Assembly (NCBI GenBank): GCA_946631895.1
Contig: CAMPAN010000002.1
Span: forward strand, 14,946 to 78,945
Direction: 5' to 3'
DNA length: 64,000 nt
From: an uncultured Clostridia bacterium
GTDB lineage: Bacteria > Bacillota > Clostridia > Christensenellales > CAG-138
Shown here: positions 1 through 14,632 of the stretch, one piece after another
Position numbering within the stretch: the first letter of the stretch is position 1
How the letters are laid out: every line of letters starts with the position of its first letter
Translations under genes and position numbers: made by a program
The notes under the pieces: model-generated
The model's input: only the letters and a program-made list of their open reading frames with translations
Told to the model about the DNA's origin: nothing
The model's database searches: none

Positions 1-1
1 A

Positions 2-985
2 TACTCAGATGATGAACTCTATGAGATTTTCCTGCGTAAAGCCAACGAATACGCAAAAACGGGAAAACGCATTCATCTTGCATTTTCGGACGAATTCGCG
101 CAATCATTGAAACACGGCTTCTCTGTTTTGCGGTTAAGGAAGGCAGACTCCTTCGGAAACGCCGGCGAAATCGAAGACTTATTAACCAAGTGCAGCTTGA
201 ACGCAGCCAAAAGGCTTGGCATGGATCTGGAGCGCGAATCGACAATCACGCTTGAGGCGTCTGATATTCCCGAGGAACTGCAAGGCAATACTAAGGATGA
301 CGAGGGGTTCCGTCCAACATACCGCCTGATCGACAGAGACGAGATCGAAAATGCAACCGATCCCTATTTGGGTATTGATATACATGGAGAAGATTTCGCC
401 GCTTTTTGCATCCAATCCATTCCTCGTATCGAAAACAAGTTTGGCCATGCTTCTGCATTTGTGATTTCACCGAAAGGGTATGCTGTTACATGTGCTCATG
501 CTGTAACATCAAAGGAAGACTTTAGACATGTTGCTGCAACAGATCTGATAGCCCGATTCACACACGCGGACGGAAGCAAAGAAAAATATCCCTATGAGAT
601 CATAAATATCAGGTCGGATGTGGATATGGCCTTGATTCGTATAAAAGCCGATCATGATCTTCCTTACCTGAAGCTTGCACCGGAGAGCCGACAGATCAAA
701 TTCGGTGAGGACTGTCATCTGTGCGGTTATCCGGACGGCAGAGAAGGCATCCTTCTACAGAAAGGATCAATCAATTCTCTTCCGGAAGAAGGCAAGGACG
801 GCGAGCTTGGTAGTATATATTTCTTCGACGGCGATGCTTTCCCCGGTGATTCGGGCGGTCCCATCATTGCCAAAAGCGACGGCTGTGTAATCGGCATTCT
901 ACGAGGTGCAAGAGGACCGAAGGATGGATCAATGCACAACTACATGAAACCGATCTGCTATTTCTGGAAAGAATTTCTGATATAG
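2..985 (+). CDS. 5'-truncated AAA+ (SpoVK/CbbX-type lid) :: trypsin-like serine protease fusion
   Basis: The frame of the listed 107..985 ORF (whose first codon is TTG) stays open to the window edge. From nt 2 it reads YSDDELYEIFLRKANEYAKTGK...FGNAGEIEDLL, like the C-terminal lid of SpoVK/CbbX AAA+ ATPases (compare YSTEELQRI...FGNGRFVRTL in the 34080..36089 protein). The C-terminal half has a chymotrypsin-fold triad: TCAHAV (His), DMALIRI (Asp) and GDSGGPI (Ser, nt 846-863). Confidence 0.7.
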   Translation, partial: YSDDELYEIFLRKANEYAKTGKRIHLAFSDEFAQSLKHGFSVLRLRKADSFGNAGEIEDLLTKCSLNAAKRLGMDLERESTITLEASDIPEELQGNTKDDEGFRPTYRLIDRDEIENATDPYLGIDIHGEDFAAFCIQSIPRIENKFGHASAFVISPKGYAVTCAHAVTSKEDFRHVAATDLIARFTHADGSKEKYPYEIINIRSDVDMALIRIKADHDLPYLKLAPESRQIKFGEDCHLCGYPDGREGILLQKGSINSLPEEGKDGELGSIYFFDGDAFPGDSGGPIIAKSDGCVIGILRGARGPKDGSMHNYMKPICYFWKEFLI

Positions 986-1047
986 TATCCGACAAATCCA
1001 TATCGTTGACGTTCTTTGTATGATAAGAAAATAACAGGAGATCAAAT

Positions 1048-1710
1048 ATGTCAGGGAAAGATTATGAGCTCGAACGGCTGCGTAGCGAAATGGACTCTGC
1101 TCAAAGGGACATTGACGCTGCGAAAGCACGGCTTGACCCAATCGTCGCAAGGAGGGACAGTATCAAAAGCCAAATCGAATCCGTGAAGTATCGAATCAGC
1201 GATATTAAACATTCAATCGAAGAAGAGTACCGTATGATGAAGATTTGTTATCAAAGCCGTGATAAATATGATGCGGAAAACCATCGCTATAGAGCGCAAT
1301 CATTCAAAGATAGCCTGCAACGCGAGTATGATATTAAAAAAGGCTATTACGATGAATTGGATCGCTTGAAAAGCGATTTCGATTCAGCCTTAACCGGACT
1401 GCGTTCTGCAAAAGAACGGAAACAACGCGCTCATGAAGCTTTCAGCGCTCGGTTGCAAATGGTAAAAAGTCAGAACGAAAGTGAGCGTGCAAAATGGAAA
1501 GAAAAGTCTTGCAAGATTTGCGGCACAACGATTCGTTATCATGTTGATTGGAGCAGAGTCCCTGATCTATGTAAATCATGTCAGGAAAAGGAAAAAGCCA
1601 AATGGCATGAGACCACCTGCAAAAAATGCGGCAGAACGATTCGTTATCATCAGGACTGGTCGCACATCCCATCAATCTGTAAAGATTGCAAAACAACCAA
1701 CAACCGATGA
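1048..1710 (+). CDS. Coiled-coil protein with two C-terminal zinc-ribbon repeats
   Basis: AGGAG RBS upstream. About 150 aa are charged and heptad-rich. These are followed by two tandem copies of CK(I/K)CG(T/R)TIRYH.DWS..P..CK.C (CxxC...CxxC). Confidence 0.7.
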   Translation: MSGKDYELERLRSEMDSAQRDIDAAKARLDPIVARRDSIKSQIESVKYRISDIKHSIEEEYRMMKICYQSRDKYDAENHRYRAQSFKDSLQREYDIKKGYYDELDRLKSDFDSALTGLRSAKERKQRAHEAFSARLQMVKSQNESERAKWKEKSCKICGTTIRYHVDWSRVPDLCKSCQEKEKAKWHETTCKKCGRTIRYHQDWSHIPSICKDCKTTNNR

Positions 1711-1725
1711 ACAGGAGGCATTCTA

Positions 1726-3096
1726 ATGAGCAGTTATGTTTCTACAGTCACCATTAACGATAAGGAATGGATGGAAATCCAGCGTAAGGTCAGCGATACT
1801 GAGATTTATCTGACTCGCAAACGTGAAGAAACTCTTCGGCTGCGTGACGAGATTCAAAGGCGTGAACGAGAGCTCAGGGAAATGCAGGAGCAGTCTAAAA
1901 GGACGGTGGATAGTGAAATTACCATGCTGCAAGGTAGTTTTGACAAATCCGTTCACGATCTTCCTGCAACGATACGAGTGTCTTTGCGTCAACAAGCACA
2001 GGCTACCGACGGTGAGCTTGCCGCATTGAAGAATGATATACGGGCTACCGCGGCAAAAACATCTATCGCTTCTGCGCGTATATCGAAGATCTCTCAAGGA
2101 GTAGCAGATATCCTCGGTACACTTGTAAAGCAGGAAAAGGACAGTGAAAAAGGCGCAAGAGTGTATTTGGACAATATTACCTCCCTTCTTGAACAGATTG
2201 AACGGCTGCACCCGGATTCCTTTGAACCGCGCGCATATATGGAGGTTATACAGATCGTAAACAGCGCGAAATCAAACATCGACGCGGGAAGATACCAGTC
2301 ATCCCTCATTAACGCACAAGCCGGCTTGCTCAAAGCGTCAGCTCTCCTGACCTGCCTTATTCTTGCAAATGCGTCGTTCAATGAAAGCATTTCCGGTACC
2401 GCTGAACTTGCAGATTCTTTGAAAGCAAGATTTGATCGGTTCGATTCCCGCATGGACGGCAGCATCGCATTTGAAATTGATGGCGAAAAATATGAGTTTG
2501 ACTATGACATCGACCATTGGTCTGAAGGTCGCTTTGCTCAATTGAGAAAGGCGTTTCAAACTGCATACGAACAGCTTCAAAATGCAAAGGAAAAACGTAT
2601 TTCTGCGGACAAAATCGACGCTTTGAAGAAAACCTTTGAAGAACTTGGAAAACGACTCGACCGTTGCGATGCATCTGCACGCGCTGAAATGCTGGGCAGT
2701 CACAGAGCGCAGGAAACCGCAGCTCGTCTTTGTGACAGAATGCCTGAAGACTGGCAGCTCGACAAGTTCGGTTTTGAAGAAGAGGACGATCGGAATCCAT
2801 ATCGAATGCTCATCTCCACGCCTTCCGGCGCGAAGATACCTATTGTCATTTCGTCGGGTGCTTCTGCGGAAAAGCCAAGCATCTTTCTTGAAGCATACGC
2901 CGGAGACGAAGCTCGTTCAGAGATTCTGAAAAAGAACATTTTAGCGACGATTCCCATGGAAGGATTACGAGTAGAGCAGACGAAACATCTTCCCGATTGT
3001 CAAAGCAATCCTAACGGCAATGCGTTCCTTCAAAATACATTGCCGAAGGCCATGGCATTAAACAAGCAGCGTCGGCAAAAGAGCTTCGGAATGTGA
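1726..3096 (+). CDS. Long coiled-coil protein (paralog of 3116..4552)
   Basis: CAGGAGG RBS. The N-terminal region is E/R/K/Q/L-rich and helical. It shares its N-terminus (TVTINDKEWMEIQRKV vs AVVPITTYNSMKQQADA), a central R(L/K)(H/F)P(D/E)..E motif and a C-terminal R(N/D)P..M block with the next gene. Confidence 0.65.
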   Translation: MSSYVSTVTINDKEWMEIQRKVSDTEIYLTRKREETLRLRDEIQRRERELREMQEQSKRTVDSEITMLQGSFDKSVHDLPATIRVSLRQQAQATDGELAALKNDIRATAAKTSIASARISKISQGVADILGTLVKQEKDSEKGARVYLDNITSLLEQIERLHPDSFEPRAYMEVIQIVNSAKSNIDAGRYQSSLINAQAGLLKASALLTCLILANASFNESISGTAELADSLKARFDRFDSRMDGSIAFEIDGEKYEFDYDIDHWSEGRFAQLRKAFQTAYEQLQNAKEKRISADKIDALKKTFEELGKRLDRCDASARAEMLGSHRAQETAARLCDRMPEDWQLDKFGFEEEDDRNPYRMLISTPSGAKIPIVISSGASAEKPSIFLEAYAGDEARSEILKKNILATIPMEGLRVEQTKHLPDCQSNPNGNAFLQNTLPKAMALNKQRRQKSFGM

Positions 3097-3115
3097 CTTT
3101 ATCATAAGAGGAAAG

Positions 3116-4552
3116 GTGGCGAATTGCTTGGCTGTTGTTCCGATAACTACATACAACTCCATGAAGCAACAAGCGGATGCGTCTTTCGGCAGAATGCGAA
3201 GCGCACAGGAAGAATTGCTTGCGGAAAAGCGCAAGCTGCTTCGGCTTACACAAGAAAGCGGAGGCATGTCAAAAGAAGATCTGCAGGCCATGCAAACGAA
3301 GTTCGATGCTGCAAACGAACAGATTCAAGAAGAACTTGATTCTCTTCGCGAAGAGTTTGGTCGTCAACTCGGAAAGCAGGCGCAAGAGTACAAACGAGCT
3401 CTTACGGAGATCAGAAGCCTCGCTGAGGGAAACAAACACGATCTTGACAGCTTAAATAACAGGATTTCTTCTCTTGAAACGTCAGTCAAATCGCAGTTTG
3501 ACGTGCTTGCCAAGCGGATGCAGAACAATCGAAAGCAGTCCTTGTACTACTATCAGCAACTTAAGGAAACGGTAGATCAAATCGAAAAACTGTTCCCCGA
3601 GAAGTATGAAGTGTTGTTCCCCGATCAATTGCAGCCCGGCAGTTATGTGCTGCGGAGCGCATTGGGTTCGGTGCTGGAGGATATAGGTCTCGGGCGGTAT
3701 GAAGCCGCTATCGGTCTTTCGCAAACCTACCTACCGGAAGCTATCAATACGCTCGGCTTGCTTGAGTTTTTCCATGCCGCTTTTCTCAAGGCTGAAAAGG
3801 ATACAAAAAAAGCACTGTCGGATTTGTTAGCCAGAGTCGAAAAGCTTGAAAAGCCGAAGAAAACAGTCCTCCACATTGGAAAAGACGTCGAGTATGAAGA
3901 TAATCATGGCATCGGATACTGGGCTCGGGAACTGTTCGGAGAAATCAGGCAACGCCTGTCCGATGCGAACGCAAGATTCGATATCTGTGCTGACGCACAT
4001 GATGAGAAGGGTTTGACGCTGATACATCAGGATATAGATGTGCTTAACGGGCAAATATCCGCATGTGAACAAATCGAAGAAAGCGAACGCAGACTGCATT
4101 ATGAATGCTGTGAGCGAGCCGCTCAGGTGATAGACATTCTTGACGCAAACGATGATAACGCATGGTACGTTGAAGAATATCATATCAACGAGGAAGATCT
4201 TCGAGATCCTGTCTATATGACTTTGGCAAGACCGGAAGGATACCGGGTGACGGTTGCCTGTTACCAAGAACGGGGAATAAGCCAAACCGAACCGAGCACT
4301 GTCCGCTGTGAACTTGAAGTGTTCGATAACGGTACCGAAAAGGCGGATGCAGGTCGATGTTGCACTATCTATCGAAACATAGCAACCATTTTAGCAACAC
4401 ACGGTATTGTTCTTGATTCGGAAATTGGAAACGAGACGCAATCCGCAAACAGTAAGTCCTTTATTCGCAACGCCATCGACCACGAAGGTCAAGCACGTAC
4501 CATGTGGTTAAGTGCTGCAAGGAAGGCAATAGGATTATTTGAGGAGGTATAG
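3116..4552 (+). CDS. Long coiled-coil protein (paralog of 1726..3096)
   Basis: GTG start next to GAGGAAAG. N-terminal similarity to the upstream paralog supports this start. Coiled-coil-like composition. The stop lies 2 nt before the Hsp70-like gene. Confidence 0.6.
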   Translation: MANCLAVVPITTYNSMKQQADASFGRMRSAQEELLAEKRKLLRLTQESGGMSKEDLQAMQTKFDAANEQIQEELDSLREEFGRQLGKQAQEYKRALTEIRSLAEGNKHDLDSLNNRISSLETSVKSQFDVLAKRMQNNRKQSLYYYQQLKETVDQIEKLFPEKYEVLFPDQLQPGSYVLRSALGSVLEDIGLGRYEAAIGLSQTYLPEAINTLGLLEFFHAAFLKAEKDTKKALSDLLARVEKLEKPKKTVLHIGKDVEYEDNHGIGYWARELFGEIRQRLSDANARFDICADAHDEKGLTLIHQDIDVLNGQISACEQIEESERRLHYECCERAAQVIDILDANDDNAWYVEEYHINEEDLRDPVYMTLARPEGYRVTVACYQERGISQTEPSTVRCELEVFDNGTEKADAGRCCTIYRNIATILATHGIVLDSEIGNETQSANSKSFIRNAIDHEGQARTMWLSAARKAIGLFEEV

Positions 4553-4554
4553 GT

Positions 4555-6261
4555 ATGGGGGAAAGTATCGGTATTGACTTCGGAACGACATATTCTTCTA
4601 TCACGCATCTTACGAATATTAAAAAAGATTCAAAAGGCAATATAGTATCCAGTGACATTGAAGCGATTAAGATCGGCACTAAAGAAACCTTGGATACTTT
4701 AGTCGTGGACAGTAATGGCGAGAGGTATTTCGGTACTGGTGCAAGACTATGGGCCGATTCAGATCCGGATGCTAAAACGTATAAAGGGTTTAAGATGCTC
4801 TTAACTGAAAAAAGAAAAGAGCTGCTTGATGAATACGGGTATCATACTGGCGAACCCAGTATAATCACGCAAGAGTACTTGAAATATCTAATCAACAGCT
4901 ATAAAAGCAGCACAAGCGGTAAAATCGACATTGACTCTCTCGTAATCGGTGTACCCGAAGTATGGTACAAGACCGGAATTGAAAATAGAAACATGCTTCA
5001 GGAAATGCTTGAAGAGCAAGTTGGTGAAGGGAAAGTCAAACTTGAGAGTGAACCTGTTTTGGCATGCTCGTTCTTTGCATACAAACACAAAGAAAAAACG
5101 GGAAAAGACTTTATTGGCAAGATCCTTTTGATTGATTACGGTGGAGGGACCTTGGATATTGCTTTATGTGACATTCAAAAAGACAAACCGATACAGATCA
5201 AGTATAAAACGGGAGAAGGCGCAAACGAACAAAACAAGCTGGGGGACGCTGGACTGGCCTTTTTAGAAGCAGTTGTCTACCGAGCTATTGATCCTCAAGG
5301 CGTAATGGATCCGCAAGCCATACAGAAGAATGCGGAGTTTTATGCTTTTGAGCATAGAATTGAGAACTTTTTGATTGAAAATGAAGCTGATGTCACAAAG
5401 CGACTAAAGGCGGGAACCAGTATTAAAAGTGAACTCAAAAAACCTCTTTGTCCACCGATTGAGTATAACAAGAAAAGATATGTGGTAACATACGAGATGC
5501 TTGTCAAAGCATATAATGAAACCATCTTTCCGGTATTGGCTAAATGTCTAAACAGGGTTAGTACAGAATTGAAAAATAGGGGAATCGACTATGAAAATCC
5601 CAATTCAGAGAGCTTTCAGATCGCAATGGTAGGAGGTTTTTGCAATTTCTATTTAACCCAAGCGCAGATCATGAAGCAAACAGAAGGATTTAAAGCCGGA
5701 TCTGAAAAAGACAGACGATATGCAGAGTTCAATTCTTTACTATCATACAAAGAGAATCGAAAGCATGCAATCGGTTATGGAGCTGCACTAATGGCAAATG
5801 GTATCTATACATCAGCTTCCGGAGCACCATACTCTTTAGCGATTGTAAGAGAAACAATCGATAAAACGACCGGAAAATCTGTTCCTGATAAGAGAGGGCA
5901 GAAGTATATCGTTTTCAGGGAATATGACGATATCGAATATGACACTCCGCAAATGGTAAAAGGACAAGACTTTGTAAAAGGAAAAGCTTATACATACGAA
6001 CCCTATTTTAGCATTGACAGTATTCCATGGATACAGTATGTATGTGATGGGTTGGGTGGATTCGGGCATCCTGTAGGGTTAGATGATCTTCCCACAAATG
6101 CCGCGATAAAGCTTGGCTTTGCCTTAGATAAAAACTATAATCTTACTTTGTATCTGTTCGTAAAAGGCGAGAGTTCGCCTAGAAAAAGAATTCTATCAAA
6201 GAATATTCAACAGTTATGCGGCGGGAGCATCGAACTTAGAGAGGAGGACGCAACAATATGA
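4555..6261 (+). CDS. Non-canonical Hsp70/actin-fold ATPase
   Basis: GGAGG RBS. All Hsp70 nucleotide-binding-domain signatures are present: IGIDFGTTYS (phosphate-1), VIGVPEVW, EPVLACSFFAY, LLIDYGGGTLDIALC (phosphate-2, aa 191-205), IAMVGGFCNF (adenosine motif) and AIGYGAALMA. I do not recognise the last ~150 aa as a DnaK substrate-binding domain. Confidence 0.85.
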   Translation: MGESIGIDFGTTYSSITHLTNIKKDSKGNIVSSDIEAIKIGTKETLDTLVVDSNGERYFGTGARLWADSDPDAKTYKGFKMLLTEKRKELLDEYGYHTGEPSIITQEYLKYLINSYKSSTSGKIDIDSLVIGVPEVWYKTGIENRNMLQEMLEEQVGEGKVKLESEPVLACSFFAYKHKEKTGKDFIGKILLIDYGGGTLDIALCDIQKDKPIQIKYKTGEGANEQNKLGDAGLAFLEAVVYRAIDPQGVMDPQAIQKNAEFYAFEHRIENFLIENEADVTKRLKAGTSIKSELKKPLCPPIEYNKKRYVVTYEMLVKAYNETIFPVLAKCLNRVSTELKNRGIDYENPNSESFQIAMVGGFCNFYLTQAQIMKQTEGFKAGSEKDRRYAEFNSLLSYKENRKHAIGYGAALMANGIYTSASGAPYSLAIVRETIDKTTGKSVPDKRGQKYIVFREYDDIEYDTPQMVKGQDFVKGKAYTYEPYFSIDSIPWIQYVCDGLGGFGHPVGLDDLPTNAAIKLGFALDKNYNLTLYLFVKGESSPRKRILSKNIQQLCGGSIELREEDATI

Positions 6262-7253
6262 TGAATCAGATGAATACTGGAAACATAAAATTGGAAAGCA
6301 TCAAAAAAGCCATTGCCTTAATTGAGAATACCCCGAAAAGCAGCATTAAAGCAGAAGATGTTTTTGAAGCGACATCCATATTGATTGACGATATTCTTGA
6401 ATATACGGAATCCAATGATGTCAATCAATATGAAATCGGTGATATAGACAGCTATGCACTAAATCTTGCAAAGGTTGCAAATGCTATTAGTTTATCCTTT
6501 GAAACCCATAAAGACGAATTGCCTGATGCAGACCGGTACTATGAAGAGCTTGTTAAGGAAAAGATTGAAGCAATCAGAAGTGCTAACGACATGCTCAAGA
6601 TTCTTCGACCAAAGATTGAAAACCTTACAAACAAGAAAGCCGAATTAAAGGGGCTTCAAGATGAGGTTAGTCAATTCAGAATGGAGATTTCTACACTTGA
6701 GAAAGAAGTAGCTAATCTTGATACAGTTGATGTTGAATCGCTTAGAAAAAGAGTTGCTGAGCTAACAGTAGAAAAAGAGAAGAAAGAAAAGGAAATCAGT
6801 ATCCTATATGATTCCATTGATGAGATCGAGACCGTTATTAACAACACAAAAAAAGGGATCATAACCACTGTTTCTGAAAAAAAGGCACTATTTCAAGACA
6901 AAGAAAGCAGTATCTCTAATGAAGTTCTGGGCTTTTTATCGTGGAAAGACACCTTTATACATGAACACAAAGACCGAATGAAGCAAATGGCGGAAGCACA
7001 AAATCAGTTGACAGCCATCCACAATGCATGGTCATCTGTAAGCCAAAGACCAGAGCTTCCTGAAATGCTGAAAAATACCGAAAAACGGAACGCTTACCAT
7101 CTTCCGGCTATAGAGGTATCAAACTTTGAGGATATCAAAAATTGGTTTGAGGAAACAAATACGGGGCTTCTTTCTTGTATTAGCGTCTATACCGAAATGT
7201 ACACAACGGTAATGACTGTATTGTTGGAGTCATCGAGTAATAAAAAGGAGTAA
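6258..7253 (+). CDS. Coiled-coil protein
   Basis: ATGA overlap with the Hsp70-like gene suggests translational coupling. The central ~130 aa are heptad-rich (KIENLTNKKAELKGLQDEVSQFRMEISTLEKEVANL...). Confidence 0.65.
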   Translation: MMNQMNTGNIKLESIKKAIALIENTPKSSIKAEDVFEATSILIDDILEYTESNDVNQYEIGDIDSYALNLAKVANAISLSFETHKDELPDADRYYEELVKEKIEAIRSANDMLKILRPKIENLTNKKAELKGLQDEVSQFRMEISTLEKEVANLDTVDVESLRKRVAELTVEKEKKEKEISILYDSIDEIETVINNTKKGIITTVSEKKALFQDKESSISNEVLGFLSWKDTFIHEHKDRMKQMAEAQNQLTAIHNAWSSVSQRPELPEMLKNTEKRNAYHLPAIEVSNFEDIKNWFEETNTGLLSCISVYTEMYTTVMTVLLESSSNKKE

Positions 7254-7258
7254 CACTT

Positions 7259-7792
7259 ATGAAATGTGTTTGTTGCCATTCAGAGTTTATAGTGACTGAC
7301 GATGGGCTTATCTGCGACTACTGCGGGTTTGAGAACTTTGGTACACTCAACGAAGCCGGGAAAGAAAGAGAATTGCAACGTGCAGAGAGGCATCGAAAAA
7401 GTATATTAGGGAAACTATCCGGCTTCTCTTTAAAAGCTGATTCCTTTATTTGGAATACAGAAACAAATAATTACAAAAAAACAGGATCAGTTGATTTGTT
7501 TGCTTCTGATTTAAATAAGGTCCAATGTGGTCAGTCGATTATTCGAAGCAACAAATGGATCGCGCATTTTGATGGCGAAACACTCCTGAATGTAAAGTAT
7601 GTCTTTGCCGGAAAAGAAAAGACTATCCCAGTAACAATTTCGCCAAAGCCAAGCGAAGGATGCTGGTATCCTTTCATCCATATAAATGACGATCTGCAAT
7701 TGGAAATCGGTCTGATTGTTGTTCCTGTAGGCGAAGCAAACAAAAGCAGAAAAGAATTGCTGGCCACGGTCGATCTTGATTTTACTGTATGA
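7259..7792 (+). CDS. N-terminal zinc-ribbon protein, unknown C-terminal domain
   Basis: AAGGAG RBS. The N-terminus CVCCHSEF..x9..ICDYCGFEN forms a CxxC...CxxCGF ribbon. The remainder looks beta-rich and has no motif I recognise. Confidence 0.6.
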   Translation: MKCVCCHSEFIVTDDGLICDYCGFENFGTLNEAGKERELQRAERHRKSILGKLSGFSLKADSFIWNTETNNYKKTGSVDLFASDLNKVQCGQSIIRSNKWIAHFDGETLLNVKYVFAGKEKTIPVTISPKPSEGCWYPFIHINDDLQLEIGLIVVPVGEANKSRKELLATVDLDFTV

Positions 7793-7847
7793 CTAAGACC
7801 TGGGGATTTGAGTCATAACACTTAATCCCCTATGGAGACAAAGCGAT

Positions 7848-8600
7848 ATGAAACAGTGTCCAAACTGTCAGGGACTAGAACTGTATGACGATGAGGAAAT
7901 AAGATGCCCTCATTGCGACTCTGTGCTCGTTCCATATGTCCGATCAAGACGAACTTCTTCTTCAGGCAATCCTACGCAAGAGGAGACTGTTCGTCCGACT
8001 ACTCCTCACAGTTCAGCAAGGAGAGCGCAGCAGCCGGAGTTTGAACAGCGAGTTGGCAGAAAACTCCAATACAGAGGTATTGTTGATAGCATCACCCCCT
8101 CTTCTCGCTTCATGCCCCGCTTTCTGAAATGGGCAAATGCGGTTTTTCGCGGTCAACCTTTTCAGTTGGGTAATCCTGTTCACGAGACGACTATACGAAT
8201 TGAAGAAATCAGTCAATCCAGATTGCCCGATAGAATGAGGAGCCTTGTCTATTATGGGGAGTTGAATGAGTTAGATGTCGGAGACGATGTAACAATATCG
8301 GCTTACAGAAAGAATAGCCGTCTGATTATAAAGCGAATCCGAATCAATGACATTGAGTCCGATGTGAAGCCGCACGGTCAGATCTCTGCGGCAGCAATGC
8401 GAATTGTATCTGTGATCGCGTTGTCCTGCATAGTATTCATAATCGCCGCAATCACATCTTTCTTTACATCGGGAGGTATTTGGAAGCTATTTGATTCCCT
8501 TGTGACAGGAACTCTCGGCATAGCATCCAGACTTTTGATTATCCTCGGGCCGATAGGTGCACTCGTTTTAATATACTGGCTGTTTTTTCGCAAAAGATAA
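7848..8600 (+). CDS. N-terminal zinc-ribbon protein with C-terminal transmembrane helices
   Basis: CPNCQG..x12..CPHCDS ribbon followed by a Ser/Pro/Arg-rich linker. There are two hydrophobic stretches near the C-terminus (IVSVIALSCIVFIIAAITSFF and LLIILGPIGALVLIYWLFF). Confidence 0.6.
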   Translation: MKQCPNCQGLELYDDEEIRCPHCDSVLVPYVRSRRTSSSGNPTQEETVRPTTPHSSARRAQQPEFEQRVGRKLQYRGIVDSITPSSRFMPRFLKWANAVFRGQPFQLGNPVHETTIRIEEISQSRLPDRMRSLVYYGELNELDVGDDVTISAYRKNSRLIIKRIRINDIESDVKPHGQISAAAMRIVSVIALSCIVFIIAAITSFFTSGGIWKLFDSLVTGTLGIASRLLIILGPIGALVLIYWLFFRKR

Positions 8601-8626
8601 TCATGGAAGATTGAAGGAGAACCATT

Positions 8627-9796
8627 ATGCGGTGTCTAAAATGTGGAGGACAATTAGATCATCATAAATGCTCAGTCTGCGGATTTGACACGGTCAAAGA
8701 CACGGTACATTTTTTATCGGCACAGCAGGCGAAAACCATGTCGCATTTGATTGCTTCGCTTTGGGACGATGAAATACACAAATCAGATGTTAAGCATGAA
8801 ATCATCGACGCCATCGACGAAGAGAGGCGGCAACTGGAGGAAAGGAAAAAAGCTCTATTACAAAGGAAAAAAGCTCTATTACAAAGAAGAAAACAAATTG
8901 AAATGGAGATAGAAGCTCTCCAAAACTCAATGCAGCAAGATCAATCATCTGCTAATTATTCATCCCATTTCATTCGAAAAGAGTTCGATGTAGAGTTGGC
9001 AATTATCGATTGGTTCAAAGATTCGACGGAGTATCCTGATGCAACTGAAATAGATCGTTTTTATCAATCATTATCATTTGCAGACGGTGCAGTCCCGTGG
9101 CGCTCCCGGTCCAGAATCAAGGAACTGGTATACCGCTATATCGAGATGAACATGGAAGTGAATACTCCGAAGGATGTTTCAAAGATTCTAAGATCTGATA
9201 ACAAGGAGCCTGTCACTTTTTTCATGCCGATCGACAGTTTCTTTTCTGATGTGAAACAGAGAACAATCGCTTGTGGAAAAGTGTTGCTCGGCGGCATCGC
9301 TGCCGGTAAACCGGTTGACATCATTCTTAAAGACGGAGATCGCTTAAAATCATTTATTACGCAGATTAATCACGGTCTTTATTCATATAATGGTCGTTCC
9401 TTTGCAGAAAAAGGAGATGTTGTAGGATTAACTCTACAAAATATCAAACAACTCAAATCGACAGAAGCACAGGCTATCGTGAATCCCAATGCCAATGCCT
9501 TGCACATGGAGTTTTCGGGTTCGTTGAATCTCTTGAAAAAAGAAGAGGGCGGTCGAAATCTTCCTGTATTTACAGGATATAAACCTTTTCTCCGAGGTCT
9601 TAACAAGGACACTCGAGGCCTTATTACCTTTGCAAAAAGGGATTCAAAACTTGATATGTTACGACCGGGCAATAAAGCTATTGTACATGTCGAATTGGAT
9701 GAACCGATCGCGATTGTTCCAGGAATGGTGTTTTCCGTTCATGAGGACGACTCGGTTACAATAGCAAAACTAACGGTAACATCGACAGAGGATTGA
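8627..9796 (+). CDS. Zinc ribbon - coiled coil - EF-Tu domain II/III homolog (no G domain)
   Basis: GAAGGAG RBS. The N-terminus is CLKCGG..x7..CSVCGFD. A coiled segment contains RKKALLQ twice. The C-terminal ~195 aa (nt ~9209-9796) align by eye with EF-Tu domains II-III. Examples: LLKKEEGGRNLPVFTGYKPFL...TRGLITF vs [32 protein letters not shown], and MLRPGNKAIVHVELDEPIAIVPGMVFSV vs [28 protein letters not shown]. No GHVDHGKT or other GTPase motifs are present. Confidence 0.8.
   Translation: MRCLKCGGQLDHHKCSVCGFDTVKDTVHFLSAQQAKTMSHLIASLWDDEIHKSDVKHEIIDAIDEERRQLEERKKALLQRKKALLQRRKQIEMEIEALQNSMQQDQSSANYSSHFIRKEFDVELAIIDWFKDSTEYPDATEIDRFYQSLSFADGAVPWRSRSRIKELVYRYIEMNMEVNTPKDVSKILRSDNKEPVTFFMPIDSFFSDVKQRTIACGKVLLGGIAAGKPVDIILKDGDRLKSFITQINHGLYSYNGRSFAEKGDVVGLTLQNIKQLKSTEAQAIVNPNANALHMEFSGSLNLLKKEEGGRNLPVFTGYKPFLRGLNKDTRGLITFAKRDSKLDMLRPGNKAIVHVELDEPIAIVPGMVFSVHEDDSVTIAKLTVTSTED
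8843..8884 (+). repeat. Perfect 21-bp in-frame tandem duplication (AGGAAAAAAGCTCTATTACAA x2)
   Basis: Read directly: 8843-8863 is identical to 8864-8884. It encodes RKKALLQ-RKKALLQ inside the coiled segment. Confidence 0.9.
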
Positions 9797-9828
9797 CCGA
9801 TGACAGTCCGATAAAATAGGAGGTTTCA

Positions 9829-12339
9829 ATGCCCAACTATACCACAAGATTGTATAATGAAATCGTTGATCATGCGGAGGAACTATATGATTTCTTCTCC
9901 GGAGATTACATGAATGGCTTTGAAAACCGCTTGTTGGATTGCGGGGCTGATCGTATCGAAATCGGCCCCATGCAATTCGTTCGTATTCTTCAATACAGAA
10001 AAACAACGAATATCCGTAACGATCTGAAAACAATTCAAACAGCTATTTCCGCATGCCTTGGTTACTGTGCGCGAAACATGGCTGCGTTTGGATATTATCT
10101 GATATCGAAAGACGATGAGTTCCGTGTTTTTCTATCTGTAGAAGGAATTCCCGCCGATGGAGTCATCCGGTTGTTATCCGGGATGATTCCCGAAATCTCT
10201 TTTCGTACAGGATTTATACCTCCATCCGATATGAAGCGGCTATCCTCTTGCTCGGGCATTATCAGCGGCGATATTCACTGTACTGAACCCATCGCAAATA
10301 TGCTTTTTCAAGCGTACAACGGCAGGAATGGTATTCTTGGGGTTCTTGCTGTTCCTATGGCTCGCTCGGAAGCATCTTCATATACAGATGCTCTGAATGT
10401 GCTGCTTCGTCAAACAGAGGACTTACTGAGCGATGATATGGCTTATTCGTTTCAGTCCAGAAAAACGAATAAACGTAGTTACCGTTTTATTCCGGAACTA
10501 AATGCCAAACTGAAAGAAATGACGGAATACTATCGCAGTTCCGGGGAAGACTATTGGAAAACCTGTTTGTGGTTTTCTACAGAGGATAGGCAATCTCTCA
10601 ACACTATTGGCAACGCAATCTCCGGTATTCTAAACAGTGCGAATGACAGTTCGGACAAAGCCAGAGTATTCTTTACTACTGAAACCCCATTTCAACAAGG
10701 CCGTTTATTTCTCCCTGCTCCTCTATTCGGCGATCATAGATTTGAATATGAGGATGCCTTGTTGAAGCCGTCGCTGATTTCGTATGTTTCAAATACGCAT
10801 TTATCCAGTATTCTTCAGTTTCCATCCTCGCAGATCAACGGTTTCGATGTCATTGAGCTTACAAAGACCGAGAACAGTATTCATCTTTTTGACTTGAACC
10901 ACCCATCTTATCAGGATAACGGAATTGCTTTAGGTAGAGTTGCGGACAGTGGAATCGGCTATGCCCTCCCGTTGCAAGACCTCATGGAACACGTCTTAGT
11001 AACCGGCTCCACCGGTGCCGGAAAGACGAATACAGTCTTTACCCTCGTTCAAGGAGTTCATGCCTTCCATATCCCAGTTTTGATAATCGAGCCATCAAAA
11101 AAAGAGTATTGGCTGCTTGGAAGCATGCTCCAGGATCTAAAGGTGTATTCATTTGGAAAGGATGCGGATCTTTTACAGATCAATCCTTTGATTCCCGAAG
11201 AAGGCGTACTCATCGGGAATCATATCGACAGTCTTCTCTATGCGTTCTCCGGCGCATTTGAGATGGAGGAACCAACCCGTTTGGCTCTTGACGGCTTACT
11301 GAAATACACTTACATGAAATCGGGATGGACTTCTGGTGATATAGCCATTTTCTCGCGTAAGCCATTCCCACAGATAAAGGATCTTCTTCGGTTTCTGCCG
11401 GAATACTGCGAACAGAACCTCCCCTATGGAGAAGAAGTGAGGAATAATATTTACGGTTCTCTCGTTAACCGGCTTTCTTCAATCAATTCAGGAGTATTGG
11501 GAGAATCGATGAATACAGCTCATCCCATCACGGGGAAGGATCTCTGTTCCGGAACCGTTCTCATTGAACTTGATGATCTTTCACTTGAAACAAAGCCTTT
11601 TATCGCCATGCTCGTGATGATAAAGGCCGATCAATATCTTCGTCAGAAAAATGCGTCTCACCGTCTCAATAATGTGATCGTTCTGGAAGAGGCTCATAAT
11701 GTTTTTGCAAATGTGGCAAAGGACAAGCGACAAGAACCCCGAGATAAAGCAAGCCACTATTTCAGCAATATGCTTTCACAAATCAGAGGATATGGGGCAG
11801 GCATTATCATTGCCGATCAAGGTGCATCTCAGATCAATGATATGGCGGTTTCAAATACAAAGGTTAAAATCATTCATGGAATTGTTGATCAGGATGACAT
11901 GGATAGAGTTGCTTTTGCGCTTAACCTGACAGATATTCAGAAAAGAGTATTCCCCTCCTTACAAACAGGAGATGCTATTATTGGGATCAGAGCATCGAGA
12001 AACGTCAATCGGGTGCGAATAAACCAAACCCGTATTACACCGATTCACAATATCGCTTGTCTGTTTTGCAAACGGAAGCAGTTCTGTGTAAACTTTAACA
12101 AAGAAAACAGCTCTCCCATTCCACGCGTTTCTCTGACTGCACAGCATATTTTACAGTATCGTTTTGATCCCATGTCTCTGTCAAACGAGCTTCACATCGT
12201 TGCCAAACATATGGAATGGCCGCAAGGCAAAGACTTATGTCTGCTTGGTTTGCTCCTTTCCGACCGCAGTGTTTTCCTCGGTGAGCGAGAAAAGAGGCGG
12301 ATCATTCAAAGATACTTGCAGACATGTTCGGAGGATTAA
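9829..12339 (+). CDS. HerA/FtsK-clade P-loop ATPase with long N-terminal region
   Basis: AGGAGG RBS. Walker A is VTGSTGAGKTNT (nt 11005-11028). It is followed by LIIEPSKKEYW, a Walker B / EEAH-type motif VIVLEEAHNVF, and IIIADQGASQI. No TM segment is evident. Confidence 0.75.
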   Translation: MPNYTTRLYNEIVDHAEELYDFFSGDYMNGFENRLLDCGADRIEIGPMQFVRILQYRKTTNIRNDLKTIQTAISACLGYCARNMAAFGYYLISKDDEFRVFLSVEGIPADGVIRLLSGMIPEISFRTGFIPPSDMKRLSSCSGIISGDIHCTEPIANMLFQAYNGRNGILGVLAVPMARSEASSYTDALNVLLRQTEDLLSDDMAYSFQSRKTNKRSYRFIPELNAKLKEMTEYYRSSGEDYWKTCLWFSTEDRQSLNTIGNAISGILNSANDSSDKARVFFTTETPFQQGRLFLPAPLFGDHRFEYEDALLKPSLISYVSNTHLSSILQFPSSQINGFDVIELTKTENSIHLFDLNHPSYQDNGIALGRVADSGIGYALPLQDLMEHVLVTGSTGAGKTNTVFTLVQGVHAFHIPVLIIEPSKKEYWLLGSMLQDLKVYSFGKDADLLQINPLIPEEGVLIGNHIDSLLYAFSGAFEMEEPTRLALDGLLKYTYMKSGWTSGDIAIFSRKPFPQIKDLLRFLPEYCEQNLPYGEEVRNNIYGSLVNRLSSINSGVLGESMNTAHPITGKDLCSGTVLIELDDLSLETKPFIAMLVMIKADQYLRQKNASHRLNNVIVLEEAHNVFANVAKDKRQEPRDKASHYFSNMLSQIRGYGAGIIIADQGASQINDMAVSNTKVKIIHGIVDQDDMDRVAFALNLTDIQKRVFPSLQTGDAIIGIRASRNVNRVRINQTRITPIHNIACLFCKRKQFCVNFNKENSSPIPRVSLTAQHILQYRFDPMSLSNELHIVAKHMEWPQGKDLCLLGLLLSDRSVFLGEREKRRIIQRYLQTCSED

Positions 12340-12340
12340 C

Positions 12341-13201
12341 ATGTTGGATACAAGCCTATTCAGAGAAACCGCTTCATCGGAGACTCGCGAACAAAACGGT
12401 ATCGCTTGTGTTGAAATAAACCGACCGCAGAGAGAAGTTGACGACAAAAAGGAGATTTCTTCTGTGGAGGTCGCTCAAAAGGCATATGATGAAACAATAA
12501 AAGAAATCAATATCGAATGCGAAGGTATTATTCCAAAGGAACAAAAAACACGAATCAATCTCGAAAGAGAAGTCCATAAGCCGATCATCATGACTTCCGA
12601 AGAATACAGCGAACGTTTCCCGGAAGCTGATCCGAATGTATTGGGGCATTATGAAGCAAACGGGCAAGTGTATATGAAAGACGGCTCTCCCGAAACGCTT
12701 TCGCACGTTGCAACGCATGAAGCCATGCATTTGACATCATTTAAGGAAAGTAATCAGAATACTTACCGATCCGGGCTGCGCGAAGCAACATATAACGAGA
12801 ACGGCATGCGAGAGGAGCATAATCGTGCCATAAACGAAGGAGCAACCGAGCTATATGCCCTTCGGGAAATGCAGCGTCGAAACGAAGGATCTTCCATCGA
12901 AGCAATCTCTGCATATCCGGAAGCGCAAAGGGCAGCATCGGAGCTACGGGACATGGTTGGAGAAGAAAGAATGCGTGAAGCATACTTCGGCGGCAACCTC
13001 GAACAATTGAAAGCGGAGGTAATCCGCTTGAATTATGGAGATGAAACAGCGTGGGATCGTTTCTCTAAAAATGTTGACATTCTTGAGTACGAGGGAGACG
13101 AACAAAAGATACGGAATGCTCAGATTGAGTTAACCTTGCAAAATGCTATAATGTATTCATTTAAAGAATCTGAAGCATGGACAAGAAGTGACAACTTATA
13201 A
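12341..13201 (+). CDS. Putative HExxH zinc metallopeptidase
   Basis: The ATG lies 1 nt after the HerA-like stop, with a GGAGGA RBS. The motif is HVATHEAMHLTSF (HExxH). The listed 12164 start would overlap the upstream gene by 176 nt. Confidence 0.55.
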   Translation: MLDTSLFRETASSETREQNGIACVEINRPQREVDDKKEISSVEVAQKAYDETIKEINIECEGIIPKEQKTRINLEREVHKPIIMTSEEYSERFPEADPNVLGHYEANGQVYMKDGSPETLSHVATHEAMHLTSFKESNQNTYRSGLREATYNENGMREEHNRAINEGATELYALREMQRRNEGSSIEAISAYPEAQRAASELRDMVGEERMREAYFGGNLEQLKAEVIRLNYGDETAWDRFSKNVDILEYEGDEQKIRNAQIELTLQNAIMYSFKESEAWTRSDNL

Positions 13202-13221
13202 TATGCACGGGGGAACCAGTT

Positions 13222-13716
13222 GTGATAATTGAATCGTTTATAAAAGAGATCGTATTCAATGCAATAGAGAACTGTAATTATGATCCAACCACCGTCTCGA
13301 ACGGTATCTGTTCTTATGCACAACGTCATGGTTTTCATGAACTGAAAACAAAATTCACGGACAGTGTTATCAAAAGAGTAATTGTCAACAGTTTAACTCC
13401 CATCATGAGTATGAAGCCGGACGCCATTACGCTTTATTTTTCAAATTATTCGCTGATTGAGAGGCTTTCTTTACTGAACAACCAATCTTTGATTATTGCC
13501 AACGCTAAACGCGCAGGAAAGTATGTCAATGACGATGAGATTTTAAAAATCGAAGAAGCATTTGATGACTGTATGAAAACGGTTTGCCAAGAACAAGGGC
13601 TCAGAGAATTGCTTGACATTCAGATATCAGAGATTATCCTCAACATCGACTATGCAAAAGGAGTATCATCTCATATGGGACAGAGATTGAATTCATTGGA
13701 AGGAGATTCTCATTGA
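13222..13716 (+). CDS. Hypothetical protein
   Basis: GTG start with a GGGGGA RBS. Its 4-nt overlap with the next gene suggests coupling. No motif recognised. Confidence 0.45.
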   Translation: MIIESFIKEIVFNAIENCNYDPTTVSNGICSYAQRHGFHELKTKFTDSVIKRVIVNSLTPIMSMKPDAITLYFSNYSLIERLSLLNNQSLIIANAKRAGKYVNDDEILKIEEAFDDCMKTVCQEQGLRELLDIQISEIILNIDYAKGVSSHMGQRLNSLEGDSH

Positions 13717-14330
13717 ATACAATCAGACTGCACGACATTTATATGCATACAACAGCGCTGGGACCGGGTACAAGAATCGCTGTTTGGCTGCAAGGATGCA
13801 AGCGCTGCTGTAAAGGCTGTATGTCACCGAAGTCAAGACCTTTGGATGGCGGACGTATGGTCGATTTGGATGCGCTTATTGAAGAGATTTGTTCCACACA
13901 TGATGTGGAGGGGGTAACAATCAGCGGCGGCGAACCTTTTTTACAAGTGCAGGCTCTCTATCGTCTGCTGTCTGCCATAAGGAACCGCACGGAACTCGGA
14001 ATAATTATTTATACCGGAAATACCCTGTCTGAACTGTACGAAATGCATAATCCCATGATAGATGAGATTATTACCCATCTGTCTGACCTGATTATAGATG
14101 GCGAATACATAGATGACTTGAATGACGGAACCGCACTGAAAGGATCCAGCAATCAAAACGCAATCTTCATTACCGACAGATATTTGCCCTATAAATGGCT
14201 GTATGAAGAGAAAAGAAGAGATATAGAAATCAAAATTGAGAATGGAAGTTCGCTGCTTATTGGAGTTCCGGACAAAAGCACACTTGAAATGTGGAGGCGT
14301 ATCTCGGACCAAATGAAAGGCGAGGAGTAG
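13713..14330 (+). CDS. NrdG-like radical-SAM activating enzyme (4Fe-4S single-cluster type)
   Basis: TTG start with a GGAAGGAG RBS. GPGTRIAVWLQGCKRCCKGCMSP gives CX3CX2C in the context typical of glycyl-radical-enzyme activases. GGEPFLQ follows. No NrdD or other glycyl-radical enzyme is visible in the window. Confidence 0.7.
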   Translation: MNTIRLHDIYMHTTALGPGTRIAVWLQGCKRCCKGCMSPKSRPLDGGRMVDLDALIEEICSTHDVEGVTISGGEPFLQVQALYRLLSAIRNRTELGIIIYTGNTLSELYEMHNPMIDEIITHLSDLIIDGEYIDDLNDGTALKGSSNQNAIFITDRYLPYKWLYEEKRRDIEIKIENGSSLLIGVPDKSTLEMWRRISDQMKGEE

Positions 14331-14632
14331 CAGATAAATGGTATTATATAAGGGGGACGACCGTGTTTGAAGTGATTGCAACCGCGGCTTCGGCGCGGAA
14401 CGTATATAATTCAACGAGATAATCAAGGAAAGTATATCTAAACCGTAACCGAAACCCAAGCTGTCCGGTTCTGACTCTGATAAAAACTGACGTTCCGTAT
14501 TCAAAGCCCGAAAAACGAAGTTCGGATCATCCGGTCCTGATTTCGTTCATTACGAAATGAATCTGAAAACAGACATGCTTCTTGATCCTATAAATCGGTT
14601 TTTGTTGCGTTAATATAGTAGAGGTAAATGAA

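Follow-up and report, generated by a model that had tools for sequence, protein, structure and literature searches.

A conserved Hsp70-centred operon of gut and rumen Clostridia, probably a new weapon or immune system powered by ATP

Pairs of HerA and an effector are an established anti-phage architecture, and the Lit protease, EF-Tu and Gol together form an abortive-infection system. The nucleoside triphosphate (NTP)-dependent 'ternary' and GTPase-centred conflict systems of Kaur et al. (2020) combine chaperone NTPases, protease cascades, modular effectors and lectin sensors of the diversity-generating retroelement (DGR) type; Hsp70 occurs in some of these systems together with GAP1-N2/DO-GTPases, tubulin, GrpE and DnaJ, and HerA appears in that paper in the reference list only (PMC7159879). 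The type III-A CoCoNuT superoperons, of the McrBC branch of type IV restriction, encode proteins with an Hsp70-like nucleotide-binding domain (NBD) and substrate-binding domain (SBD) alongside extensive coiled coils and zinc ribbons, and contain AAA+ ATPases of the SpoVK type or HerA/VirB4-like ones as insertions (PMC11090510). Protease-licensed effectors and lid-less DnaK fusions are found in defence modules (PMC12642450), and the zincins Tox-MPTase1-5 have been catalogued among polymorphic toxins (PMC3482391). Here we describe an operon centred on an Hsp70 paralogue in a stretch of 64,000 nucleotides, referred to as the window, from an uncultured Clostridia bacterium (GenBank assembly GCA_946631895.1, contig CAMPAN010000002.1, positions 14,946 to 78,945). 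The operon is real and conserved and has no counterpart in the libraries and literature searched; it probably represents a weapon or immune system of a new sort that runs on ATP.

Thirteen open reading frames (ORFs), g1 to g13, lie on the + strand of the window and fill the whole span 2..14330. The successive junction distances from g1 to g13 are 62, 15, 19, 2, -4, 5, 55, 26, 32, 1, 20 and -4 nt, and a gap of 302 nt follows g13 on its 3′ side. An earlier note made from the letters of this DNA had described thirteen co-directional genes with overlaps or gaps of less than ~65 nt; the measured range of -4 to 62 nt agrees with that description, and the junctions it quoted (overlaps by ATGA at 6258-6261 and by TTGA at 13713-16, and gaps of 2 nt at 4552/4555 and of 1 nt at 12339/12341) are exact. 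A motif check on the translations found the catalytic motifs intact across the array. The window edge cuts g1, which is encoded complete, at 1801-1807 amino acids (aa), on the 108-kb source contig and is preceded there by a small XRE-like helix-turn-helix gene. The whole operon has 14 genes and measures ~19.7 kb; its 3′ four-fifths lie in the window, while the XRE-type regulator and, in g1, the initial ~1,480 codons fall outside it on the left. In what follows L-numbers denote the loci or contigs that were compared, L001 being the source contig.

The Hsp70 encoded by g5 has 465 detectable relatives, and it is carried by 195 of 185,579 species genomes, one genome having been scanned per species. 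All 80 listed loci belong to Clostridia (Lachnospiraceae, Oscillospiraceae, Blautia, Ruminococcus), three of them coming from cultured isolates. Local profile searches over 87 loci drawn from the 195 carriers recovered Hsp70 in all 87, g6 in 83, a g1-like AAA gene in 82 and g7 in 76; the g3/g4 pair and the radical-S-adenosylmethionine (radical-SAM) activase were each found in 14, HerA in 9, and g8, g11 and g12 in 8 each. What we term the type-A order, namely AAA (with or without trypsin), g3, g4, Hsp70, g6, g7, g8, HerA, g11, g12 and the radical-SAM activase, is kept in L002, L004-7, L010, L129 and L130 at 31-43% Hsp70 identity. Recurrence in at least ten independent contigs at this degree of divergence puts the gene order beyond chance. 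The majority of loci are of a second type, B, represented by L044 (8126-17971) and about 60 others, which begins with a ~590-aa homologue of the g1 N-terminal region followed by Hsp70, g6 and g7, and continues with a ~160-aa protein with four transmembrane (TM) segments, ~390-aa and ~230-aa proteins without known family, and two AAA+ genes. Type B thus splits g1, its N-domain standing upstream of Hsp70 and its AAA+ genes downstream (hhalign 98.5% for both pieces), and places the 4-TM protein where type A has g8; in type B Pfam matched no family apart from AAA. Among cultured carriers, Pseudoflavonifractor sp. 60 has a type-A locus that looks fragmented, and Blautia intestinihominis CLA-AA-H95 and Hominifimenecus microfluidus CLA-AA-H215 have type-B loci.

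A different distribution emerges when the predicted toxin gene g11 is followed. Scanning metagenomes with a g11 profile returned 41 loci, in which g8, HerA, g11 and an ORF of ~165 aa recur as a block. Of these loci 31 contain HerA, which stands directly 5′ of g11 where the upstream sequence suffices; the exceptions are L109 and a few loci in which one or two ORFs intervene. Only 7 of the 41 contain Hsp70, and at least 16 with long flanks lack it. Most Hsp70-core loci are without HerA, and in L003 and L012 four other genes take the place of the HerA block. Because the HerA block occurs without Hsp70 and the Hsp70 core mostly without HerA, the operon is a composite of three parts: the Hsp70 unit A (g1, g3-g7), the autonomous unit B (g8-HerA-g11-g12) and C, the radical-SAM activase. 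The thirteen genes had been proposed as a single system; the co-occurrence of neighbours across genomes that this implied is found, and the one indivisible unit is not, given the HerA blocks that lack Hsp70 in those 16 or more loci. In L131 (14034-16262) a coupling ATPase of the VirD4/TraG type (T4SS-DNA_transf, TraG-D_C) occupies the position of the HerA module, directly after the radical-SAM gene.

Comparison of ten operon proteins with PADLOC-DB v2 found the signature set of no named system. Assignment to a named anti-phage system was considered and rejected, the PADLOC matches being generic: RT-Protease_XI and LmuA for the trypsin domain, JetC and LmuB as coiled-coil noise, and the ATPase half of HerA. 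That the gene set is unlike any named defence system, as had been supposed, is borne out by these searches. A phage or plasmid origin was likewise rejected, PHROGs yielding only generic HerA and radical-SAM/NrdG-like matches; a tblastn search with the Hsp70 gave no match among 50,697 phages and, among 72,556 plasmids, matched a single distant Hsp70 of cyanobacterial type, and profiles of the Hsp70 and g11 found no relative in IMG/VR. Pfam and PHROG gave no match in the operon to DnaJ, GrpE or phage structural and replication families, so that library scans uphold the observation that the operon has no dnaJ or grpE, no secretion-system membrane core and no phage structural or replication gene. 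A full-text literature search, which did not extend to subscription-only papers, found no description of the gene set.

The universal component of the Hsp70 unit is g5 itself (4555..6261), which comprises an NBD and the β-subdomain of the SBD (SBDβ). A profile built from 30 sequences matches the DnaK NBD in the PDB at 2e-14, and the DFGT, K80, E166 and DYGGGT motifs are invariant in these 30 relatives. Residues ~420-563 are all-β in the AlphaFold2 (AF2) model (pLDDT 84.8, pTM 0.85), which aligns with lid-truncated DnaK and BiP over ~600 columns; the top Foldseek match is DnaK lacking SBDα, at E 1e-20. Identity to DnaK is 15-18%, and the Pfam HSP70 model is not reached at E 0.01 by the window protein. 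The earlier note had assigned g5 a full Hsp70 NBD and a non-DnaK C-terminus. The first assignment agrees with both the profile and the Foldseek result, and the second must be revised, since the alignment of the model with NBD + SBDβ structures indicates that the C-terminus is an SBDβ lacking its lid and not a domain foreign to DnaK. As modelled, g5 is an NBD + SBDβ Hsp70 without the α-helical lid, the protein ending after the β domain.

The gene products that accompany g5 in unit A combine AAA+ rings, a protease, coiled coils and a zinc ribbon. For g1, the window contains the last 327 codons of an AAA+/trypsin-like protein (2..985; Pfam AAA_lid_6, Trypsin_2 1e-22). The full gene, which spans 1008/1026-6431 in L001, encodes a long N-terminal region, two AAA+ domains of the EccA/CbbX/SpoVK type and a C-terminal trypsin-like serine protease with its His in CAH and its Ser in GDSGG. 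In PDB profile searches the best solved relatives of g1 are the ESX-1 chaperone EccA1 (1e-39), CbbX (3e-37) and HtrA (9e-8), and the ~1000 N-terminal residues of the full protein have no match. The g1 counterpart in L006 (649 aa) has no protease domain, and the protease is therefore optional. In L129 (1-6439) a type-A operon is headed by two tandem AAA-trypsin genes, of 1923 aa and 524 aa.

Next to g5 in type-A loci, all of which contain them, stand the coiled-coil paralogues g3 (1726..3096) and g4 (3116..4552, with an alternative ATG start at 3161), proteins of ~450 aa; g3 aligns end to end with g4 and with 18 relatives. The profile search for this pair recovered 18 proteins only, since the candidate list fills up with coiled-coil words. 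In its AF2 model (pLDDT 86.4) g4 has a helix of 105 residues, helical hairpins and, at the C-terminus, a small sheet domain, and Foldseek found no fold match for it (best E 0.16 against PDB and 5e-3 against BFVD). An apolipoprotein-like identity for g4 was considered and set aside, the PDB profile search having given only compositional helical matches. The coiled-coil protein g6 (6258..7253) overlaps the Hsp70 gene by ATGA, an arrangement of translational coupling; it is found in 83/87 loci at lengths of 273-1066 aa and is a universal partner of the Hsp70, and hhalign gave no match of g6 to g3/g4 at >=60% probability. The other universal partner, g7 (7259..7792, 76/87 loci), has an N-terminal zinc ribbon, read from the translation, and a β-rich domain, and a single-sequence homologue search with it recovered two proteins. 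Its zinc ribbon has a CGF[DE] knuckle that is common to g7, g9 and the protein encoded at 16151-18967 (g16). The remaining gene of this half of the operon, g2 (1048..1710), encodes a coiled coil with a C-terminal double zinc ribbon, visible as two CxxC..CxxC pairs in the translation and as a weak match to Pfam DZR_2. Homologues of g2 were recovered only in L001, L002 and L008, along with a 224-aa gene in the same position in L129, and g2 is an accessory of the closest relatives only.

Unit B begins with g8 (7848..8600), a protein with a zinc ribbon and two TM segments at ~178 and ~218, which is found immediately 5′ of HerA in 22 metagenome loci, with or without Hsp70. The HerA/FtsK-superfamily ATPase itself, g10 (9829..12339, 836 aa), has the Walker A motif GSTGAGKT at residues 393-400 and the Walker B motif VIVLEEAH and matches Pfam DUF87 (3.8e-7), PADLOC HerA (9e-13), NCBIfam CedD (9e-20) and the PDB HerA structure 4d2i (8.5e-6); its N-terminal ~360 aa are without match. 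Between the two lies g9 (8627..9796), composed of a zinc ribbon, a coiled coil and EF-Tu domains II/III without the GTPase domain. The EF-Tu match covers residues 194-384 (NCBIfam EF-Tu 3e-22; Pfam GTP_EFTU_D3 7e-12). This gene is absent from L003-L007 and L130 and, like g2, is an accessory of the closest relatives only.

Downstream of HerA, g11 (12341..13201) encodes a zincin-like metallopeptidase of 286 aa that is a predicted toxin. Its HExxH and NEGxTE motifs and a Tyr are invariant in an alignment of 53 relatives, and the family is small, with only 95 clusters among 1.84 billion representative proteins. It matched no family in Pfam, NCBIfam, PADLOC, PHROG or PDB, deep and shallow profiles of g11 and g12 against Pfam and PDB likewise giving nothing, and the Pfam Tox-MPTase and peptidase U49 models gave nothing against it at E 0.01. 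No trafficking domain is recognised on the window protein, whose variable N-terminus has no Pfam domain. Elsewhere the g11 domain is the C-terminal part of larger proteins with varied N-terminal regions: it ends a PAAR protein (P0187) and proteins of 560-1616 aa, among them a set of 560-950 aa and one of 1616 aa with a signal peptide (L128), whose N-terminal regions are otherwise coiled-coil or strongly acidic repeats. No Pfam trafficking domain was found in these long relatives, most of which adjoin HerA and are followed 3′ by an ORF of ~160 aa. The placement of the domain at the C-terminus behind such varied N-terminal regions is the reuse expected of a toxin domain. Several individual loci are of interest here. 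L111 (7557-10596) has two tandem g11-like zincin genes (339 and 465 aa) after HerA, each with a small ORF behind it, resembling a toxin-cassette array. Distant relatives in L121 (6378-8642), L124 (1678-4533) and L123 (5967-8408) have long N-termini of extremely acidic D/E/P-rich repeats, and the distant 1616-aa relative in L128 (3660-8510) has a signal peptide instead of acidic repeats at its N-terminus. The acidic tails could act as a nucleic-acid mimic for the HerA pore.

The gene behind g11, g12 (13222..13716), encodes a 164-aa protein with no TM segment and no signal peptide. Its position is always directly 3′ of g11; it is recognisable in 25 of the 41 g11 loci and is replaced in the more distant ones by an unlabelled ORF of 161-168 aa. 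The ~160-aa ORF diverges together with the toxin and matches no known Imm family in Pfam, g12 itself has no match in Pfam or PDB, and hhalign found no homology of g12 to the type-B proteins at >=60% probability. Toxin-like reuse of the g11 domain in the PAAR and long proteins, combined with the small downstream partner, makes g11 look like a toxin with a cognate antidote, and g12 is likely to be the antidote or immunity partner. Since g12 is soluble and without a signal peptide, a cytoplasmic target is implied.

The operon closes with g13 (13713..14330), a radical-SAM activase of the PflA/NrdG type with a CX3CX2C cluster (CKRCCKGC) and a GGEP motif. We place its start at the TTG at 13713 because this start is needed to include the CX3CX2C cluster, and it gives the length of the homologues. 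Matches are to Fer4_12 (5e-28), to the NrdG model TIGR02491 (4e-27, below the family cut-off) and to the PDB entry for pyruvate formate-lyase (PFL) activase (1.5e-7). The gene occurs in 14 type-A loci, and several HerA-only modules also have it nearby. No glycyl-radical substrate, whether as an RVxG[FWY]-type loop, Gly_radical or a PFL-like protein, was found in 19 window proteins. Taken together, Pfam/NCBIfam matches and motifs agree with the identities first proposed for g1 (AAA+::trypsin), g10 (HerA), g11 (HExxH peptidase) and g13 (radical-SAM activase), and the double zinc ribbon of g2, the paralogy of g3 and g4, the zinc ribbons of g7-g9, the two TM segments of g8 and the EF-Tu II/III domains of g9 were also correctly read.

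The GC content is low, at 0.38-0.47, over a stretch that starts at least 5.4 kb outside the left window edge and runs to ~21.7 kb within it; beyond 23.2 kb it is 0.55-0.62. From this difference it follows that the operon is carried on a compositionally foreign, AT-rich island of at least 27 kb, which was probably acquired horizontally, and the right-hand boundary lies within 21.7-23.2 kb. The AT-richer island had been noticed before; the tRNA-end fragment that was said to bound it could not be recovered, ARAGORN, Rfam (at gathering thresholds and at E<=1) and a T-loop pattern search of the window giving no relevant tRNA or tRNA fragment. No repeat or att site was identified at the right-hand boundary. 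An XRE regulator and/or an integrase lies directly upstream of the operon in L001, L002 and L130, the integrase in L130. In the 302-nt gap 3′ of g13 there is a weak terminator-like hairpin (14524..14547, + strand) recognised by consensus match only; terminator-like sites are not more frequent here than in shuffled sequence, and this is the sole + strand one in an intergenic gap. An ORF of 397 aa at 21685-22878 with intermediate GC (0.50-0.55) and no family match lies between the AT-rich island and a high-GC two-component system at 23496-25393 on the - strand.

Beyond the gap the island continues on the + strand with a sigma-like gene (14633-15373), which has weak matches to Sigma70_r2 and to a model of the RpoE-like sigma factor associated with type III-E CRISPR. 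It is overlapped by a gene (15336-16037) whose translation contains an H-x3-C-x2-C motif (HLMACPSC) of the zinc anti-sigma type. Sigma genes are also found 3′ of the operon in L002, L003 and L008, and the pair at 14633-16037 could be a linked, protease-controlled transcriptional output. The next gene (16151..18967, + strand) encodes a 938-aa surface protein with a zinc ribbon (ZnR) of the DUF5663 type containing the CGFD knuckle, a coiled coil, one TM segment at ~260, DUF6273 and RCC1, and is possibly linked to the operon as well. DUF6273 has been described as a DGR target in phage receptor-binding proteins. ZnR/TM proteins with MORN, Sel1, YARHG, LRR, RCC1 or DUF6273 ectodomains flank many of the related loci. 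Further along the window, 19264-20031 and 20085-21140 encode adjacent paralogous proteins with 3-4 TM segments and no family match, whose C-terminal halves are nearly identical and which both end in RIVPNERVIAKTPY.

A SPASM-type radical-SAM enzyme adjoins the type-A operon in L004 (1800-3119, - strand), L005, L006 (3444-4794) and L007, its best solved relative being the sactipeptide maturase CteB (1e-15), followed by SkfB. In L006 this gene is followed by a 40-aa ORF in an arrangement like a cassette for a ribosomally synthesized and post-translationally modified peptide (RiPP), and an ABC exporter with a C39 peptidase lies downstream in L003. HerA-only modules for their part adjoin radical-SAM enzymes, Ser/Thr kinases, PP2C, vWA, ClpB-like ATPases and other Hsp70s, a company that recalls regulated conflict systems; among 110 HerA-module neighbours are one MobL relaxase and one coupling protein of a type IV secretion system (T4SS).

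We favor a reading in which the operon deploys a toxin, under regulation, within the cell that makes it, and to this we assign a probability of about 0.4. Each functional step given here is our interpretation of the gene content, as are the role of g12 as antidote and the idea that the toxin is directed inward. Unit A, made up of the AAA+/protease giant, the g3/g4 scaffold, Hsp70, g6 and g7, would be responsible for sensing and licensing, and unit B would be the effector, with HerA tethered to the membrane by g8, the zincin g11 and the antidote g12. At rest g11 would be kept harmless by g12 and/or by docking on HerA-g8. The open, lid-less Hsp70 and the coiled-coil scaffold would capture a trigger, either a foreign or aberrant polypeptide or the signal of a ZnR-tagged sensor, whereupon the AAA+ rings would unfold whatever inhibitor or pro-region is bound and pass it on to the protease with which they are fused. 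HerA would then spend ATP to release or activate the zincin, and the zincin would cleave an essential cytoplasmic target and so stop the infected cell, which would give protection from phages or other mobile elements in the manner of abortive infection. In this locus the decoy-like g9, with its EF-Tu domains II/III, hints that the translation apparatus is sensor or target. A broader proposition, which we advance tentatively, is that Hsp70 with its coiled-coil and ZnR partners and an EccA-like AAA+ protein might be the core of an unrecognised class of chaperone-based machine in anaerobic Firmicutes. Within such a class it is conceivable, at similarly modest odds, that the Hsp70 is the primary sensor or licensing ATPase, its open SBDβ binding foreign or tagged polypeptides, and that output modules are interchangeable; equally tentative is the suggestion that the output of this locus is the membrane-anchored HerA with the zincin toxin and its antidote, the radical-SAM enzyme making the response oxygen-sensitive.

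Several observations are consistent with deployment inside the cell. The intact motifs and conserved synteny of the operon, the recurrent Hsp70-g6-g7 core with its g1-like pieces in type B, the autonomy of g8-HerA-g11-g12, the toxin-like reuse of the g11 domain and the soluble g12 all count in its favor. The fusion of trypsin to AAA+ rings is comparable to protease-effector defence modules (PMC12642450), the PADLOC and NCBIfam anti-phage HerA models are matched by g10, and the setting includes upstream XRE or integrase genes, an AT-rich island and, in some flanks, restriction-modification, WYL or YpsA genes; relatives are absent from the phage, plasmid and IMG/VR collections. Other observations speak against it. 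Most Hsp70-core loci, those of type B, have no g11 or g12, and the function of the Hsp70 unit therefore does not need this toxin. Several flanks contain RiPP or bacteriocin genes (the CteB-like enzyme with its 40-aa ORF and the C39-ABC exporter), the PAAR fusion, the signal-peptide fusion, the tandem cassettes and the TM partner of a pumping ATPase fit export equally, the radical-SAM enzyme is left without an explained part and no glycyl-radical motif was found in the operon proteins, and the g3/g4 pair offers no functional clue. Nor does the genomic neighborhood form a clean defence island: among 123 flanking ORFs compared with PADLOC at 1e-10 a handful match and no family exceeds two matches, and the two 'pVip' matches may be SPASM-type radical-SAM RiPP maturases. 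Pfam labels in the flanks are mixed and dominated by ZnR/TM repeat proteins, sigma factors and RiPP/bacteriocin genes. A defence-island location, one of the first expectations for this DNA, is thus weakly supported. The conflict-system reading from which that expectation came keeps the conserved multi-NTPase operon and the toxin-like reuse of g11 and loses the single-unit and defence-island claims, and its notion of an effector recruited as an inactive fragment of cellular machinery now draws on g9 only.

The closest rival is the export of a toxin for inter-bacterial antagonism, a reading that we consider somewhat doubtful and that fits the same parts about as well. HerA and a g8 oligomer would make up a translocon resembling that of type VII secretion, equivalent to an EssC in separate pieces, and export the zincin g11; g12 would provide immunity to the producer, secretion would be assisted by the EccA-like AAA+ protein and by the lid-less Hsp70 as chaperones or unfoldases, and the protease would be a processing enzyme. 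The occurrence of the g11 domain at the C-terminus of the PAAR, 1616-aa signal-peptide and 560-950-aa proteins with a small ORF behind each, and the tandem cassettes of L111, speak for such a reading, as do the dedicated TM partner that is always 5′ of HerA, the relationship of the g1 AAA+ domains to EccA1 as best solved relative (1e-39), the VirD4/TraG-type coupling ATPase that substitutes the HerA module in L131 and the RiPP/bacteriocin genes that adjoin several loci. The disordered or acidic N-termini of g11 relatives would suit threading through a ring. However, no WXG100, EssB, EsaA, YukD or other secretion-core family was matched in the operon or its flanks, the operon encodes one small membrane protein only, and the window g11 has no recognised trafficking domain. 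Orphan g12 arrays were not seen in the loci examined, and type-B loci lack the toxin-immunity pair altogether.

In a second rival reading the operon would be a chaperone or quality-control machine and no weapon, with zinc-ribbon-tagged membrane or surface proteins (g8, 16151-18967) as its clients and g11/g12 as an addiction add-on. The universal core of Hsp70, g6, g7, a small membrane protein (g8 or the 4-TM ~160-aa protein) and AAA+ accords with this idea, which is comparable in spirit to accessory Sec systems, and so do the ZnR/TM proteins with MORN, Sel1, YARHG, LRR, RCC1 or DUF6273 ectodomains that recur beside the loci and the CGF[DE] knuckle common to g7, g9 and g16. We nevertheless judge it unlikely: the distribution is patchy (195/185,579 species genomes), the island is of foreign composition and lies beside an integrase or XRE regulator, and protease-fused AAA+ rings and a toxin-like zincin are unexpected for a biogenesis pathway. 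Least probable of all, and in our estimate a long shot, is a role in maintenance or transfer of the island, in which g11/g12 would be an addiction module and a DNA-pumping ATPase of the HerA/VirD4 type would serve stability or DNA transfer. The best NCBIfam match of HerA is indeed the DNA translocase CedD (9e-20), with weak matches to VirB4, TraD and TrbC; a TraG/VirD4 homologue stands at the equivalent position in L131, an integrase lies upstream in L130, and the MobL relaxase and T4SS coupling protein occur once each among the 110 HerA-module neighbours. By Pfam, however, genes for a relaxase, a VirB4/ConE set, a cell-wall hydrolase or a multi-TM channel are missing from the operon, the search of 72,556 plasmids turned up no relative bar one distant cyanobacterial Hsp70, and the Hsp70 unit would be left unexplained.

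If deployment of a toxin within the producing cell is correct, this would be the first system with an Hsp70 paralogue, and not a STAND, AAA+ or SMC ATPase, as the conserved centre of a bacterial conflict machine, and the catalogue would gain a further family of zincin toxins along with a HerA module of four genes. The hosts are abundant gut and rumen Clostridia, in which antagonism and defence against phages are little known and have been under-sampled in screens centred on E. coli. The g3/g4 pair, with a confident model for g4 and no fold match in PDB or BFVD, would be a new protein family. The modular split of the operon also yields small units that can be tested, namely the g11/g12 pair and g8-HerA-g11-g12.

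The systems closest to unit B are SIR2-HerA and DUF4297-HerA, which likewise place a HerA-clade ATPase beside a toxic effector and whose solved HerA chains are matched over the ATPase half. They differ in that the effector here is a new zincin family with no adjacent SIR2 or DUF4297, that the operon adds two obligatory genes, those of the ZnR-2TM protein g8 and of g12, and that the ~360-aa N-terminal region of this HerA is unmatched; the matches of the operon to anti-phage HerA models are partial and far below the family cut-offs. As among the Tox-MPTase toxins, a small HExxH zincin occurs in the PAAR fusion as a C-terminal toxin domain with a downstream partner, whereas g11 falls outside the Pfam Tox-MPTase families and is a stand-alone protein of 286 aa in the window. 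With Lit, EF-Tu and Gol the locus has in common an HExxH protease encoded alongside EF-Tu II/III, but peptidase U49 is unmatched and g9 is absent from most loci. The activase resembles those of glycyl-radical enzymes in its CX3CX2C and SAM motifs, and differs from such pairs in that no glycyl-radical substrate protein was found nearby. Conjugative T4SS differ more clearly, the operon having no relaxase, VirB4, VirD4, channel or hydrolase and its HerA being weakly VirB4/TraD/TrbC-like.

Type VII secretion (ESX/T7SSb, LXG pairs) resembles the operon in its EccA/CbbX-type AAA+ protein, its TM-anchored FtsK/HerA motor, its serine protease and its toxin with an immunity-like gene. HerA is single-domain here as opposed to the triple-domain EccC/EssC, the protease is trypsin-like and fused to AAA+ where MycP is a subtilisin, and WXG100, EssA, EssB, EsaA and EccB/D/E were not detected with Pfam/NCBIfam in the operon and pooled flanks; Hsp70 and the coiled-coil pair are additions. 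Compared with the DnaK-DnaJ-GrpE machine, g5 shares an NBD with the catalytic Lys, Glu, Asp and Thr and an SBDβ that begins APYxLGI (TPLSLGI in DnaK), and it differs in lacking the α-helical lid and in being encoded in an operon with no J-domain or GrpE gene. The CoCoNuTs come near in their parts list, yet Pfam finds no McrB GTPase (CnuB), McrC/DUF2357 (CnuC), vWA, HEPN or nuclease among the 13 products of the operon, and the catalytic motifs that are degenerate in the CoCoNuT Hsp70 (PMC11090510) are kept in g5. The systems of Kaur et al. work on a comparable logic and include Hsp70 in some cases; they differ in turn by the MoxR, vWA, STAND, GTPase, tubulin and effector-associated domains (EADs) that this operon does without, its own complement being an Hsp70 with intact motifs, AAA+ rings fused to a trypsin-like protease, and a HerA ATPase joined to a zincin and its predicted antidote.

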